Positions 6,067 through 13,779 of a stretch of 13,779 bases of DNA are shown here, in pieces (position 1 is the first letter of the stretch; every line of letters begins with the position of its first letter). The notes under the pieces are model-generated. The model searched no databases, was not told the DNA's origin, and was given only the letters and a program-made list of their open reading frames with translations. The position numbers and the translations under genes are program-made. Source of the stretch: Candidatus Thorarchaeota archaeon (GTDB lineage Archaea; Asgardarchaeota; Thorarchaeia; Thorarchaeales; Thorarchaeaceae); contig PRDH01000052.1 in the NCBI GenBank assembly GCA_003345545.1, forward strand, positions 1-13,779. Reading direction: 5' to 3'.

Positions 6067-7094
6067 TGCTTCGGCACCTCCCTGGTTGTCAAAGCAGTCG
6101 ACACAGTGATGACATTTATATCAACAGGACATGTTTCCACACACCGTCCGCAGCCAACGCAGCCAGGACGGCCGTATTCATGTCCGAATGACTTGAGTTT
6201 ATGAGTATACCATAGTTTTAATCGGTCTTGTCGAGTTCCACGGAAGTTGTGGCCTCCAGCGACCAAGCTGTAGTCCACGAACATACAGCTGTCCCACATT
6301 CGGTTTCGCTTGCCCTTTGCCTCGTTGGTGACATCAAACACATCGGTGACAGTATAGCAATTGCATGTTGGGCAGACCATCGTGCATTGCCCGCACGATA
6401 AGCATTTGCCCGCGAAGTAGTTCCAAATCTCGCTGTTGTAGCTCAGTTCCATGAGGTCTGGCATGTTATTGAAATCGATTTTCTGTTCGAATTTCGCGTT
6501 TCGTTTCTCTCGCCACTCAACATACCTATCAATGTCTTCGTGGCTCACATTCTCTTCAAAGAACTCCTCCCGTTCGCGTATCATGTCATAGCCTCGACTT
6601 GAGCCTACCCAAACAAGGTAGAACTCCTCCAAGTTGACGAAGAAAAGGTCAAAGCCCTCCTCAATCATGTCCGTATCAGTACTCTTGCACAAAGAGGACT
6701 TACTTGGCATGCATGAGAAACCAATGATAGAAGAATTCTCTCTAAGTCCTGTGTAGTAGGGATCTGCTGGTTTTCCCATGAAAATTTCATCCAGTCTGAG
6801 CAGCCCATGTATGTCGCATGGATGGACTCCGATGATGACTCTTCTCTCGATGACCGAGTAGTCCGGACTAAAGCCTCTCTCATCGAACTGAAGCATCGTG
6901 AACTTCATGGGATGAAACAGCTTCTTCAGTGGAATCATTGGGACCTCATCGGAAATCTCTAGGTCTGAGATCTTCTCCAGCTTTTCAAACCTGAGCACTC
7001 CGTTTCTTCTAACCGGCCCATAAAGAGAACCAAACTTCTCAAGGCTCTCAAGGAACACATCCAAGAATTTTGACTGCATCTTCATTATGCGCAT
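6063..7094 (-). CDS. hydB: Group 3b hydrogenase beta subunit (AsrA-like 4Fe-4S ferredoxin)
   Basis: GVHPCDI, DPYY, CLSCGQCTMVCPTCNC, WDSC, AGGHNFR, CVGCGRCVETCP. ATG at 7094 (MRIMKM, like Thermococcales MRYVKL) is preferred over GTG 7103 because AGGTG lies just upstream as an SD. Confidence 0.94.
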   Translation of the reverse strand: MRIMKMQSKFLDVFLESLEKFGSLYGPVRRNGVLRFEKLEKISDLEISDEVPMIPLKKLFHPMKFTMLQFDERGFSPDYSVIERRVIIGVHPCDIHGLLRLDEIFMGKPADPYYTGLRENSSIIGFSCMPSKSSLCKSTDTDMIEEGFDLFFVNLEEFYLVWVGSSRGYDMIREREEFFEENVSHEDIDRYVEWREKRNAKFEQKIDFNNMPDLMELSYNSEIWNYFAGKCLSCGQCTMVCPTCNCYTVTDVFDVTNEAKGKRNRMWDSCMFVDYSLVAGGHNFRGTRQDRLKLWYTHKLKSFGHEYGRPGCVGCGRCVETCPVDINVITVSTALTTREVPKQ

Positions 7095-9748: not shown

Positions 9749-10234
9749 CTATCGCATTAGAATGAGCGAGTAGAGAGCCCTCTCAAAGAGGCTCATCTGC
9801 ATCTCGACAGAATATGTGTAGACTATACGGACCACAAACGGACCTTCTGCATTGATCTCTATCACAGTCGTTGCGTGTTCTGCGTTGTAGTTGTATCCTG
9901 CACTCATCGCCTGAATTGATGCAACCAGAACGCTCTCAGTAGACATCCAGGTACCATTCTGGTACAGGAATCGAATCTCTGCAGTCCTATTGCAGAATAC
10001 ACTGACCCAAGTCACCTTTGGCCCACCAAATCCGACTTCAACATGGTCCTGGTCGTCAGAAATATAATATGCAGTCCTAGTTGCATCGACTACCTGAGTG
10101 AAAGGGATGGAACAGAATACAGCTACGATGAGAATGCCAACGACCAAGTAGAACTCCGGTGCAAGACGGGTCAGATTGGTCCGCCTCCTTGATTGCACTT
10201 TCATCATCTCGTCACGTAATGCTCTATTATACAT
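9749..10234 (-). CDS. Hypothetical membrane-anchored protein (one N-terminal TM helix, beta-rich domain)
   Basis: Basic N-terminus, TM segment FYLVVGILIVAVFCSIPF, then alternating beta-strand pattern. The real start may be ATG 10207/10204, since a BRE/TATA-like AAAGACTAAATA lies at about 10246-10257 on the minus strand. Confidence 0.7.
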   Translation of the reverse strand: MYNRALRDEMMKVQSRRRTNLTRLAPEFYLVVGILIVAVFCSIPFTQVVDATRTAYYISDDQDHVEVGFGGPKVTWVSVFCNRTAEIRFLYQNGTWMSTESVLVASIQAMSAGYNYNAEHATTVIEINAEGPFVVRIVYTYSVEMQMSLFERALYSLILMR

Positions 10235-10325
10235 CGCATTTTACGTATTTAGTCTTTGAGAATTGTAATTTGTTGGTAGAAACTACTGAATCGTGGCTCT
10301 GGCCGACCACAGTGGATGGGTCTCT

Positions 10326-10365
10326 AACAAGAGCGAGAGTGGGGACAGGTCCCCACAATCTTGTT
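10326..10365 (-). terminator. Strong stem-loop immediately 3' of the ahcY fragment stop codon
   Basis: Plus strand reads AACAAGA-gcgaga-GTGGGGAC-ag-GTCCCCAC-aa-TCTTGTT: a perfect 8-bp inner and 7-bp outer inverted repeat. It abuts the minus-strand TAG at 10366-10368. The structure is certain, the terminator role is inferred. Confidence 0.6.
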
Positions 10366-10467
10366 CTACGTTCCTTCCTTGTAGGCTCTAGCGTAGACCT
10401 CCTGTTCAGGAGTCCACTTGTCAATCTTGGTGCCCAAGGTTCCAAACGTTACAGCAGCCACTTCTCT
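10366..10467 (-). pseudogene. ahcY: Orphan C-terminal fragment (33 codons) of adenosylhomocysteinase
   Basis: REVAAVTFGTLGTKIDKWTPEQEVYARAYKEGT* matches the archaeal-type AhcY C-terminal pattern (E-V-A-x2-K-L-x3-G-x2-I-D-x-L/W-T-x-E-Q-x2-Y-x6-G-T*). Upstream in-frame residues show no AhcY resemblance and there is no room for a ~420-aa gene. Recognised from memory of the family, not by search. Confidence 0.75.
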
Positions 10468-10628
10468 GCAAAACCCATTGGATTTAGGTTTCTGTTTTGA
10501 TCGGGGCAGGTAAATGGCTTCATCGTCATGAAGAGGCGTGAATGAAAAGAATGAGGGACTCGCCATTGGAAAGATAGATAGGGCAGTTGGATGCAGGTAT
10601 CTCAGAGGTTAGTTGGAGGAAACGAGTA

Positions 10629-11558
10629 ATGAGCCAGATACCATACAGTGGAGAGAAGACTGCCAAGATTGGGCCTGTTGAGGTCGCCTATGACACGTTC
10701 GGAAATCCAATATCCCCGCCTATGCTTCTGATCATGGGACTAGGTGCGCAAATGATCCGGTGGGATGAGGCGTTCTGCAAGGCGCTTGCCGCACAGGGTC
10801 ACTGGGTCATCCGCTTCGATAATCGTGACGTGGGGCTATCAACGAAGTTTGATCAAGCAGGCATTCCTGATATCATGTCGCTAATACAGGGAGAGAAGGT
10901 CGATGTGCCCTACAAATTGAAAGACATGGCCGCTGATGCAGTGGGCCTGCTAGACGTGCTTGGAATCAAATCGGCCGATGTTGTAGGTGTTTCAATGGGG
11001 GGAATGATTGCTCAGACTATGGCTATTCATTATCCTAAACGAGTGAGAACATTGACATCAATCATGTCTTCGACGGGCAACCCTAGTCTTCCACAGACAC
11101 GCCCGGAGGCGATGGAGGTTCTGTTTGCACCCGCTGCTACAAATCGGAAGGACTACATCACCAGTGAGCTGGAAGCCGCGAAGGTACTTCATGGACCAAA
11201 ATACCCCTTGAATGAAGAGTATGTCCGCAACTACTCAGAACGATCCTATGACAGATGCTATCATCCACAGGGATTTCCAAGGCAATTGGCAGCCATTCTT
11301 GGTTCTGGGAGCCGAAGTGAAGCTTTAGCTAAAGTGAAGATTCCAACCCTTGTGATTCACGGGAGCGCGGATCCGTTGGTGCCTGTTGAAGGTGGAAAGG
11401 ACACGGCCAAGAGCATACCCGGTGCTAAGCTGCTCATCATCGAGGGAATGGGACACAGTTTTCCAGTGGAGGTTGTACCACAGATACTTCGAGCGATTTT
11501 GCAGCACACCGCTCCGCAGAAAACTAAAAACAGTCGGACTAAGGATAACGAACGGTAG
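10629..11558 (+). CDS. Alpha/beta-fold hydrolase (esterase/lipase-like)
   Basis: LLIMGLGAQM oxyanion region, RFDNRDVGLS, nucleophile elbow GVSMGG, HGSADPLVP (Asp) and GMGH (His). ATG 10629 with GGAGG at 10615-10619 is preferred over TTG 10587. Confidence 0.93.
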   Translation: MSQIPYSGEKTAKIGPVEVAYDTFGNPISPPMLLIMGLGAQMIRWDEAFCKALAAQGHWVIRFDNRDVGLSTKFDQAGIPDIMSLIQGEKVDVPYKLKDMAADAVGLLDVLGIKSADVVGVSMGGMIAQTMAIHYPKRVRTLTSIMSSTGNPSLPQTRPEAMEVLFAPAATNRKDYITSELEAAKVLHGPKYPLNEEYVRNYSERSYDRCYHPQGFPRQLAAILGSGSRSEALAKVKIPTLVIHGSADPLVPVEGGKDTAKSIPGAKLLIIEGMGHSFPVEVVPQILRAILQHTAPQKTKNSRTKDNER

Positions 11559-11861
11559 GTGGCCTTTTAGTTGATCACACGCCTGCCTGATGTGCTCAGA
11601 GAATCCTGTTTCATAGAGCAAATATGAGGAGTGAGAGTCAAATACCATGGAATGAGAGTAAGCGCATCATTGCAGTATGGTACCTTGATACAGTCAGAAG
11701 TCCAACATGCGAATTAGATTCCTGTTTTCCAGCGTGAATAAACGCGAATTGCCTGTATGAATGATGCATACATTCTCTTTCTCCATGCGCGTGTTCGATA
11801 ACGGATTTCTAACACTTTGACAAAAGATTAGGTCTAACGACTACGTTGTAATCATTGTGAC

Positions 11862-12086
11862 GTGACGATGTCTGGTGATGGTAAATCAGGTAGCAGATCT
11901 CTTGTTCCAAAGATACTCCTCTCTCTCATGCCCACTCTTGTGCCAATCTCGATAGCTGCCCGGATTCCGGCCTTTGCCTCTCTCCTCGATGCCCAGAGGG
12001 CTCCCGAAGATAACGTTCCCTGGAACAGGGTCTTCGTGAAGATCCAATCAGAGATCGGTGAACAGGGGTCTGAACTTGCCGCGTGA
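11862..12086 (+). CDS. Small hypothetical protein with a hydrophobic segment
   Basis: 74 aa (GTG 11862 or ATG 11868). Hydrophobic stretch LVPKILLSLMPTLVPISIAARIPAFASLL. Its stop overlaps the probable TTG start of the next gene. Confidence 0.45.
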   Translation: MTMSGDGKSGSRSLVPKILLSLMPTLVPISIAARIPAFASLLDAQRAPEDNVPWNRVFVKIQSEIGEQGSELAA

Positions 12087-13779
12087 GTTCTCGGAGCATC
12101 GCGAGCGATGGAGGCCTCCTGAGCACAGGGAGAACGATGAAAACCCTGAGATGGAGAAGCACTCTGAGCGGATCAGAGAGCTCGTCGATGATGCAATCAG
12201 AGAGCTGAAGCATGAGGAGTCTATCGAGAGGATGCTGAAGGAGTCTATCGAGGAGCTTAGGGAAAAGGAGGCTCGGGCTGACAGGACTCGGGATCTTGTG
12301 CAGGAAGCGATGAAGGAGCTGCATGTTCTTGAGGAAGATCTGGGGCATAGGCTAGAAGATGCCCGAGAGGATAATCACGAGGAGTTCGTCAATGACATGA
12401 AGAGCCAGCTTGAGAGGCCCTCCCTCAAGGATGCCAAGGAGGAGCCTTCAGAGCCTGACCATGATGGAGAAACCTCGGAAACCACAGAGTCCAGCCAGAC
12501 GTATATCGAAGGTGGTGATGGGACTGTCTACGTGGTCGAAACCGGTGGTACGTCTGAGGGTCGCGCAAGGTCCGAGAACGAAGAAGTAGGAGAGGTGCAT
12601 CAAGAACATACACAGAATCCTGAGGACACAATGGAAGAGGAGGAACCGCATGAGTCCGTAAAGGTCAGGAACTGCATTAGCCATCCTGAGCATACAGAAA
12701 CGGATGAGTCGGAAGAAACCGTGGTTCCTTCTGAGTCCACAAGGAGTCAAGAAAAGACAGGGAACGGGGAAGAGGTCTGCCTAGAAGACTGCAGAGAAGA
12801 GGAGTCCAAAGGGGAATTCCAAGAGAAGAGGGTGCTTGTGCCTTCAGAGGTTGAAGCGACCATCTCACCTGCTGATGACGAAACAATCGAAGAGGTGACT
12901 CAACCTATTGAAGAGTCAGCTCGTGAGAATACGGAGGAGAATCATGAAGAGAGTGAGGCGACACTTGAGCAGGGTACGGATGAGGTAGAGGAAACTCCAG
13001 AGAACAATATAGAAGTCGAGCATGAAGAGTCTTGGGAGGCTGATGAACTTGAGGAGCATGATGAAGAGTCAATAGAGGTTCCTGAGGAGATCATCAGAAA
13101 GATTGCGGAGCTTCTGGAGGAACTTGGCGAGCTCGAAGAGGAGGAGGTCGATGAGTCCCGGGTCATCATCGATGCCATAACAGGAGAGCGATACGTCGAC
13201 CACTCTCTGGAGCCTCGTCCGTACTTCTCTGAGACCGAGGAGGATCGTGAGCGCGAGGAAGAGGAACGCATCCGTGAGAGACTCAGAGAGCTGTTTGCGA
13301 GGCTCACTGAGGAGGAGCGTGAGGAGTTCAAGGAGTCAGTGAGGCCTGAGATTGAGTCTGAGAAAGAACTTGAGGAACTGGCTAGACGATGGTGTTCAAG
13401 AGTCGTGAGCCCCGACTTCAAACAAAACCTGGAACATGCGCGTCAGTACATTCGAAATAAGAAACGCGGAGAGGTCCCGCGGCTCATTCGTGAGTTACGT
13501 GCGCTGGAAGTAGAGCAGCAGTGGATGAAGGCTGTGGGCGCCGTTGCCCGTAAGAAGATGCTGAAACAACTAACGACCATGATGCACCACTCAAGAGAGG
13601 CTGACAGTTCTCTCCTCGATTCCAAATCACGTGAGAAGAGTCTGCTCTCATTGCAGAAGTTCATTCCACCGACCTTCGAGAACTTCAAACACGCTCTCAA
13701 AGAGCGGCCTGAGCTCAAGACGAGGAAGGACTACAGGAAGGGATTGCGACTGGCTGAGGTCTACTACAAGGTCAAGGAC
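12076..13779 (+). CDS. Large Glu-rich hypothetical protein, 3'-truncated by the window (>=568 aa)
   Basis: Hand translation of frame +1 shows no stop from 12040 to the window end. Candidate starts are GTG 12058, TTG 12076 (MPREFSEHRERWRPPEH...) and ATG 12151. It is absent from the ORF track because the stop lies outside the window. The Ser/Leu-rich antisense ORFs are its shadow. Confidence 0.9.
   Translation, partial: MPREFSEHRERWRPPEHRENDENPEMEKHSERIRELVDDAIRELKHEESIERMLKESIEELREKEARADRTRDLVQEAMKELHVLEEDLGHRLEDAREDNHEEFVNDMKSQLERPSLKDAKEEPSEPDHDGETSETTESSQTYIEGGDGTVYVVETGGTSEGRARSENEEVGEVHQEHTQNPEDTMEEEEPHESVKVRNCISHPEHTETDESEETVVPSESTRSQEKTGNGEEVCLEDCREEESKGEFQEKRVLVPSEVEATISPADDETIEEVTQPIEESARENTEENHEESEATLEQGTDEVEETPENNIEVEHEESWEADELEEHDEESIEVPEEIIRKIAELLEELGELEEEEVDESRVIIDAITGERYVDHSLEPRPYFSETEEDREREEEERIRERLRELFARLTEEEREEFKESVRPEIESEKELEELARRWCSRVVSPDFKQNLEHARQYIRNKKRGEVPRLIRELRALEVEQQWMKAVGAVARKKMLKQLTTMMHHSREADSSLLDSKSREKSLLSLQKFIPPTFENFKHALKERPELKTRKDYRKGLRLAEVYYKVKD
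12215..12252 (+). repeat. Short in-frame direct repeat
   Basis: AGGAGTCTATCGAG occurs at 12215-12228 and 12239-12252 (24-nt period), encoding ESIE twice. Confidence 0.6.

Follow-up and report, generated by a model that had tools for sequence, protein, structure and literature searches.

A detached ahcY 3' end in a Thorarchaeota genome

Contig C52 of a Candidatus Thorarchaeota genome (GenBank contig PRDH01000052.1, assembly GCA_003345545.1), analyzed over its whole length of 13,779 nucleotides (nt) and called the window here, carries a 3' end of ahcY that is separated from the rest of the gene. On the minus strand from 10467 down to 10369, 33 residues correspond to the C terminus of AhcY, and a stop codon occupies 10366 to 10368 (Table 1). 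The peptide is 54.5% identical over 33 amino acids (aa) to the AhcY of the same genome (G000), which is encoded on contig C15 at 72422 to 73678; this match has an E value of 5.5e-7 in a search of the whole 2.69-Mb genome, where the next-best matches have E values above 2. Likeness to AhcY breaks off sharply at 10467/10468 and is absent upstream of 10467 in every frame, and a loose tblastn search of contig C52 with full-length AhcY returned no ahcY piece besides this relic. The relic shares 75% nucleotide identity over 73 nt with the functional ahcY 3' end of the genome, a level of identity indicating that it is no recent duplicate of the working tail. Directly behind the relic lies a stem-loop (-17.5 kcal/mol; z = -2.25 against shuffled sequences) that is homologous, with a core of GGGGAC...CCCC, to those following intact ahcY on C15, on a further contig of this genome (C62), and in related genomes. 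The relic therefore comprises a coding tail together with its own terminator.

The window ends within a block of genes whose far side is on another contig. The right end of C52 is the reverse complement of the end of C15 over 125 exact bases, and the order of genes across the join, in the orientation of the window, is a 161-aa membrane gene (memb161, minus strand), the relic (minus), an alpha/beta hydrolase gene, orf74, and a giant gene (all plus), intact ahcY (minus), and a gene for an Lrp/AsnC-type regulator (plus). The giant open reading frame (ORF) encodes 574 aa in the window and 716 aa on C15, about 1290 aa in total, and a database homologue is exactly 1290 aa long. The gene ends 17 nt from the stop of the convergent, intact 418-aa ahcY, and the relic edge is 5,480 nt from that stop on the joined contigs.

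An earlier note, made from the sequence of the window, had recognized the 33-codon AhcY-like end, the strong stem-loop, and the abrupt loss of resemblance near 10468, and it had taken 10467/10468 for the left edge of a block running past the window that holds the hydrolase, the 74-aa ORF, and the giant acidic protein and has an intact minus-strand ahcY at its far end. The peptide does align with AhcY C termini, the contig join and the gene order bear out the proposed extent and content of the block, and the intact gene is where it was expected.

Table 1. Features of the block and its left flank in the window
Feature	Position	Strand	Basis and remarks
memb161, 161-aa membrane gene	9749..10234	-	Backbone gene; adjoins ahcY 3' end or relic in G003, G007, and G017
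Promoter-like A/T box upstream of memb161	10241..10264	-	Three-way spacer alignment of G000, G007, and G003; putative promoter
Terminator-like hairpin of the displaced tail	10326..10365	-	Fold and homology to hairpins behind intact ahcY
ahcY relic	10366..10467	-	Codons 386-418 plus stop; tblastn match and tail tree
Junction spacer, relic edge to hydrolase gene	10468..10586	.	DNA matches of relatives begin only at ~10555-10570
Alpha/beta hydrolase gene, 323 aa	10587..11558	+	Pfam Abhydrolase_1, 3e-23
orf74, 74 aa	11862..12086	+	Overlaps start of giant gene; uncertain as a gene
Giant gene, N-terminal 574 aa of ~1290 aa	12058..13779	+	Continues on C15, 75969 to 73696

Sequence affinity marks the relic as native and the working tail as foreign

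The 5' and 3' parts of the working ahcY of G000 have different affinities. In a tree of codons 1 to 340, G000 groups with G017, G011, and G043. In the 3' tree, the working tails of G000 and G017 fall with those of G012, G015, G003, and G020, and the G000 relic falls with G007, G011, and G043, apart from the working tail of its own genome; these three genomes are relatives of G000 by the 5' tree or by neighboring genes. The relic and the G007 tail have an identical run of 31 nt in common. For G000 as for G017, sliding windows show a switch of affinity at codon ~345, and the 5' part and the 3' part give different counts of informative sites (Fisher P from 3e-4 to 7e-6 in the comparisons with G012 and G015). 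The best breakpoint lies at nt 1044/1045, corresponding to codons 348/349, in three of four triplets; this test is independent of the trees and agrees with them. Judged by these affinities, the relic is the native ahcY 3' end, and foreign sequence makes up the working tail from codons 348/349 on. The earlier placement of the boundary at 10467/10468 holds for the edge of the block, but the primary junction is at codons 348/349 and not at codon 385.

Synteny was compared over 28 genomes of the genus, in which the backbone is ydjM - msrA - memb161 - (hydrolase) - ahcY - lrp, with the tail of ahcY facing memb161. The genes between ahcY and memb161 differ in nearly every species. The empty site expected from the earlier note, with ahcY intact and immediately upstream of the membrane gene, is present in G003, where ahcY is followed by the hairpin, the A/T-rich promoter-like box, and memb161, and alignment shows this stretch to be collinear with the relic side in both G000 and G007. 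In G002, the hydrolase gene and ahcY are arranged tail to tail with 50 nt between them and without a relic, and neither G002 nor G011 has a relic or a giant gene. Taken as a whole, the locus very probably arose by displacement of the native tail upon insertion of a block that supplied a replacement tail.

Relics in related genomes share a junction

Besides the intact genes, a protein search of the genus returned about a dozen fragments of the ahcY tail, nearly all of which start between aa 345 and aa 352. Ten genomes carry such fragments, among them G007, G013, G004, G015 (three on one contig and one more), G042, G012, G020, G010, and G021. At the nucleotide level, their 5' edge is formed by the GHP codons (GGNCAYCC). 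The relics of relatives comprise 70 to 73 codons, versus 33 in G000, and the shorter ones (codons 386-418 in G000, 385-418 in G014, 386-418 in G015 C254b, and 399-418 in G020B) are read as eroded versions of the longer ones. Relics occur in varied contexts and at varied positions in the tail tree, so several independent events are likely.

The inserts bounded by relics in relatives hold ordinary genes, including those for NosD-like proteins, flavin reductase, methyltransferase, aconitase X, and MR/MLE proteins. On contig C254 of G015 (locus L053), three relics (1323-1541, 6820-6918, and 10177-10395) are separated by gaps of 5.3 and 3.3 kb that contain mostly unannotated ORFs; the first and third relics form a mosaic, with near-identical 3' halves and different 5' halves. 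A flavin-reductase-like gene directly follows an ahcY tail in three species (L054, 5106-5681; L055, 2352-2918; L058, 4515-5108), and that tail is the functional one in G013 and G004, a relic in G020; the tail and the flavin-reductase-like gene look like a linked unit.

The ahcY gene of G007 (locus L016, contig C67, ~2241-2276) is interrupted precisely between codons 348 and 349, after H-P-S-E and before V-M-D, by a palindromic insertion of 31 nt that breaks the reading frame. The insertion resembles the product of imprecise break repair; a scar of that kind, a chimera assembled from two alleles, and a tiny spliced element are the candidate explanations. This metagenome-assembled genome (MAG), which is 83% complete, yielded no second full ahcY.

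The giant protein ends in a predicted LAGLIDADG endonuclease module

The giant protein consists of an acidic region, helix-turn-helix (HTH)-like modules, and a double LAGLIDADG module, in that order. It matches no Pfam or NCBIfam family at threshold, even at E = 10, and the sole trace of a sequence family is a weak match (0.059) to the intein region of RtcB. A profile search against the PDB likewise returned nothing significant, the matches being weak ones to homeodomains. Assignment of the C-terminal part comes from an AlphaFold2 model of the last 658 residues, which was built with 112 homologues and has a mean predicted local distance difference test (pLDDT) score of 95.4 and a predicted template modeling (pTM) score of 0.90. 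Residues ~331 to 620 of the model form a double LAGLIDADG endonuclease domain, with the doubled alpha-beta-beta-alpha-beta-beta-alpha core of the monomeric, two-domain enzymes. The top Foldseek matches are LAGLIDADG enzymes throughout, with E values down to 3e-5, and VIA-align Z scores are 17.6 for the TliVMA intein endonuclease, 17.5 for PI-PfuI, 17.2 for I-Tsp061I (186 of 204 residues covered), and 16.0 for I-DmoI (168 of 183 residues, root mean square deviation of 2.4). The catalytic D of motif 1 (...IGSDGSI) is present in 111 of 112 family members, and motif 2 (...LIPDEG) has D or E in all 112; WhiA and other non-nuclease relatives have lost these motif-terminal acidic residues. By predicted structure and motif, and not by sequence family, the C-terminal module is a member of the LAGLIDADG homing endonucleases. 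The stretch ahead of this domain (window positions 13345-13779 and the adjoining part on C15) is helical, with weak homeodomain-like matches (E = 0.03 to 0.4), and is consistent with tandem HTH modules serving as extra DNA-binding parts.

The giant family comprises 380 clusters at 50% identity. Its named members are all "hypothetical protein" entries from MAGs of Candidatus Thorarchaeota or Hermodarchaeota, and genomes of the genus hold up to eight paralogues each. In G000, G015, G042, G012, G017, and G009, the giant gene or a C-terminal remnant of it abuts the ahcY stop. A Ser-versus-Glu immunity polymorphism at codon 348 was considered and dropped, as G042 and G009 have Glu together with the gene or a remnant.

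G000 has a second, partial copy of ahcY on the 2.76-kb contig C62. Positions 1 to 2760 of this contig (corresponding to C15 73212-75971) run from the C-terminal part of the giant gene through ahcY codon ~264 at 80 to 93% nucleotide identity. The divergence, 10 to 20% in nucleotides, is confined to a 2.5-kb stretch between identical flanks, which match the end of C52 in 54 of 125 nt without a break and C15 over 119 nt. A database protein (P0003; 1290 aa, 84% identical) matches the C62 allele type. C62 may represent a strain bubble or a recent conversion tract.

The same layout at other genes

Sixteen paralogue loci were sampled in relatives of G000. On contig C108 of G015 (L065, 4132-9213), an Lsm gene faces a paralogue of the giant gene, and two in-frame copies of the last ~31 residues of Lsm lie 1 to 1.8 kb beyond it. 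On contig C134 of the same genome (L067, 7834-11383), a class-V aminotransferase gene faces a paralogue, and an in-frame copy of its 42-aa tail is located 141 nt beyond the start of the paralogue. The scpB gene of G023 is a marginal case of this layout. No displaced tail was found near the paralogue on contig C69 of G000.

Other genes and features of the block

The hydrolase of the block also has an NCBIfam macrolide-esterase-like match, which is below the cutoff. It is nearest to that of G005 (83.5% aa identity), versus 74% to that of G011, which is the partner of G000 in the ahcY 5' tree, and searches of the close relatives G003, G007, and G017 did not turn it up; it therefore probably arrived with the island. 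Elsewhere in the genus, the hydrolase gene is a backbone neighbor of ahcY, and in G000, on these sequence relationships, it is probably cargo. In the spacer between the relic and this gene, positions ~10468 to 10555 have no homologue among the relatives examined. There is no Pfam match for orf74 and no homologue of it at the corresponding loci of relatives, and no Pfam family was assigned to memb161. A 66-aa ORF with an ATG start spans the relic on the minus strand (10366-10566); its first 33 residues are without likeness to AhcY. It is likely spurious, though gene callers may annotate it, and this short ORF should not be called a gene.

A homing endonuclease as the probable driver

The LAGLIDADG protein is probably the driver of the insertion, and the block would then be a homing-endonuclease "mobile ORF" (mORF) element that overwrites the 3' ends of genes. 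By analogy with such elements, the endonuclease would cut element-free ahcY alleles near codons 348/349, in the conserved G-H-P-S|V-M-D motif, and the break would be repaired from a donor that bears the element. The tail of the element (codons ~349 to 418 and the terminator) would be spliced in frame to the resident 5' part, leaving ahcY functional, and the resident tail would be displaced distally, beside the membrane gene, where it would then decay. Along with the replacement tail, the inserted segment would bring the convergent ~1290-aa gene and, in G000, orf74 and the hydrolase gene. Shortening of the displaced tail of G000 from ~70 to 33 codons could have occurred by resection at insertion or by later deletion. 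The hydrolase gene may have come from a donor in which it adjoined ahcY, with the right-hand join being illegitimate after resection. We infer from this analogy DNA cleavage by the giant protein, ahcY as the target, and a driving role in the insertion. Indirect evidence for site-specific cleavage comes from the recurrent junction at codons 348/349 and from the 31-nt insertion at the same point in G007.

The locus has the attributes of an mORF insertion. The tail is duplicated, one copy being fused to the gene while the other lies displaced on the far side of the endonuclease ORF; the fused copy is foreign and the displaced copy native, as judged from short sequences; and the insertion varies in presence and absence, with an empty site.

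Several observations weigh against this interpretation. The relic of G000 lies beyond the hydrolase gene and orf74 rather than directly beyond the endonuclease gene; this position, together with its start at codon 386 and not 349, means that at least one extra event has to be assumed. Several relic-bounded inserts lack an endonuclease gene, among them the NosD-like insert of G007 and the flavin reductase insert of G013; the gene may have been lost from these, as remnants in G017 and G009 illustrate, or the inserts may be of other origin. At 13 of the 16 sampled paralogue loci there is no displaced tail, and the codon-348 Ser/Glu polymorphism does not track the presence of the giant gene. The structural matches include non-nucleases with LAGLIDADG folds (WhiA and maturases). 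Added to these are features of the data: the source genome is a MAG of 82 contigs and 2.69 Mb (92.9% complete, 5.4% contamination), the adjacency of C52 and C15 rests on an assembly overlap, and the trees were built on 99 to 219 nt, so that their topology alone is weak.

Alternative explanations

The earlier note had attributed the locus to a site-specific recombinase element, that is, a classical tyrosine or serine recombinase element inserted into an attachment site (attB) inside ahcY and supplying a replacement 3' end. The geometry fits, with a displaced tail, an intact gene in the same orientation on the far side, and an empty site; the relics of relatives share a recurrent boundary, some of them in tandem; and archaea offer documented cases of integration in the 3'-distal region of a protein gene (PMC6563490). 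That attribution is not borne out by the content of the island, the whole of which is visible. The full-length, co-oriented ahcY anticipated to the right is there, and the recombinase anticipated with it is not: Pfam scans of all island ORFs yielded no integrase, resolvase, casposase, or tyrosine/serine recombinase domain, and scans of ~30 ORFs in the relic-bounded inserts of eight relatives yielded no integrase, resolvase, or casposase. The sole mobility-type gene is the one encoding the LAGLIDADG domain in the giant protein. The geometry is right and the expected recombinase agent is absent. The relic and the functional tail have no identical att core, their longest exact common run being 9 nt, which may reflect decay of an old repeat. 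Moreover, the inserts of relatives are often single ordinary genes of 1 to 1.5 kb, and the untemplated-looking 31-nt insertion at the G007 junction suggests break repair, not conservative recombination. An element of this type, its integrase lost or located outside the island, seems to us decidedly improbable. Still more improbable, to the point of being nearly negligible, is that the relic is the leftover tail of an old tandem ahcY duplicate that was mostly deleted. Its divergence from the resident gene would suit such a paralogue, but the relic sits exactly where the tail of the single intact ahcY sits in G003, with terminator and spacer collinear, the tail that is foreign is that of the resident gene itself, and the contig holds no other ahcY remnants.

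A stronger competitor, though an unlikely one, is turnover that proceeds independently of any endonuclease. The region between ahcY and memb161 would be a variable hotspot that takes up foreign DNA through homologous recombination anchored in conserved ahcY and an illegitimate join at the opposite end, and the LAGLIDADG protein would be a bystander, for example, a domesticated DNA-binding protein. The variation in gene content between ahcY and memb161 among species is as this process predicts, as are the many inserts without the giant gene, and the relic edge of G000 at codon 386 and the adjoining spacer show no homology of any kind, as expected of an illegitimate join. Up to eight paralogues of the family occur per genome, most of them without an obvious displaced tail. 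What such turnover does not predict is that about ten relics, of different sequence type and context, share a 5' edge formed by the GHP codons, that this edge coincides with the breakpoint in the working genes, or that the same layout of target, endonuclease, and displaced tail occurs at two unrelated genes. Retention of the catalytic acids in 111 to 112 of 112 members is likewise contrary to a purely DNA-binding role.

Comparison with known systems

The closest parallel is with the mORFs of fungal mitochondria, in which an endonuclease ORF arrives with a foreign C terminus of its target gene and the native one is displaced downstream; cases include atp6 of Allomyces macrogynus and atp6, atp9, cox2, and nad3 of Glomus (PMC3630166). 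As in those cases, the target retains its 5' core and gains a divergent, element-borne 3' end, a LAGLIDADG ORF follows, and the displaced native C terminus resembles the tails of close relatives, with the inserted tail clustering elsewhere in the tree. The locus described here differs in residing on an archaeal chromosome (Asgard, Thorarchaeia-like) and not in an organelle, and in the orientation of the endonuclease gene, which is convergent with its target rather than in frame or codirectional. It differs also in the size and plan of the protein, ~1290 aa in which a long acidic region and HTH modules precede the predicted endonuclease domain, and in the presence of extra cargo genes.

Free-standing homing endonucleases of phages, such as SegF and MobE of T4, are similarly encoded beside, and not inside, a conserved gene (PMC2790892). 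In phage intronless homing, these enzymes are thought to cut nearby alleles free of the endonuclease and to spread by break repair and coconversion (PMC2790892), and the 2.5-kb divergent stretch of the C62 allele would fit a coconversion tract. Unlike the protein considered here, the phage enzymes are mostly of the GIY-YIG or HNH type, act between coinfecting phage genomes, and leave no duplicated, displaced 3' end of the neighboring gene (PMC2790892).

Among archaea, the integrated mobile genetic elements (iMGEs) of Thaumarchaeota also insert into the 3' part of a protein gene, with the frame restored and an empty site in relatives, but they carry integrases or casposases and are flanked by short identical att repeats or target site duplications (PMC6563490). 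A search for ahcY in the text of that report gave 0 matches. The HeimM2 element of Heimdallarchaeum, like the block at ahcY, is an Asgard mobile element with a homing-endonuclease homologue, and that homologue has been suggested to be co-opted for site-specific insertion (PMC8813620). HeimM2 differs in its location between a 16S rRNA gene and a tRNA gene and in its cargo, and no duplicated gene tail has been described for it (PMC8813620). A limited literature search found no description of mORF-like tail replacement in archaeal chromosomes or of the giant family.

Implications for Asgard archaea

Extension of this reading to the whole giant family is more tentative, and we put it forward as a possibility at somewhat short of even odds. 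The family may constitute unrecognized chromosomal homing elements of Asgard archaea that put foreign tails in place of the 3' ends of housekeeping genes, namely ahcY, Lsm, class-V aminotransferase, and possibly ScpB genes, leave arrays of displaced tails behind, and ferry cargo between species, as an archaeal counterpart of mORFs with a new multidomain architecture. If the endonuclease is active, it would provide a route of gene flow among Asgard archaea that involves no integrase, transposase, or virus: a site-specific break repaired from a donor would replace the tail of a gene and import the genes adjacent to it. Such activity would explain why this locus varies in nearly every species, why assemblies break at ahcY, and why orphan gene tails pile up. 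A large, unannotated family of proteins of 600 to 1600 aa would gain a function as well, and long-target enzymes with unusual accessory DNA-binding modules would be added to the LAGLIDADG endonucleases.

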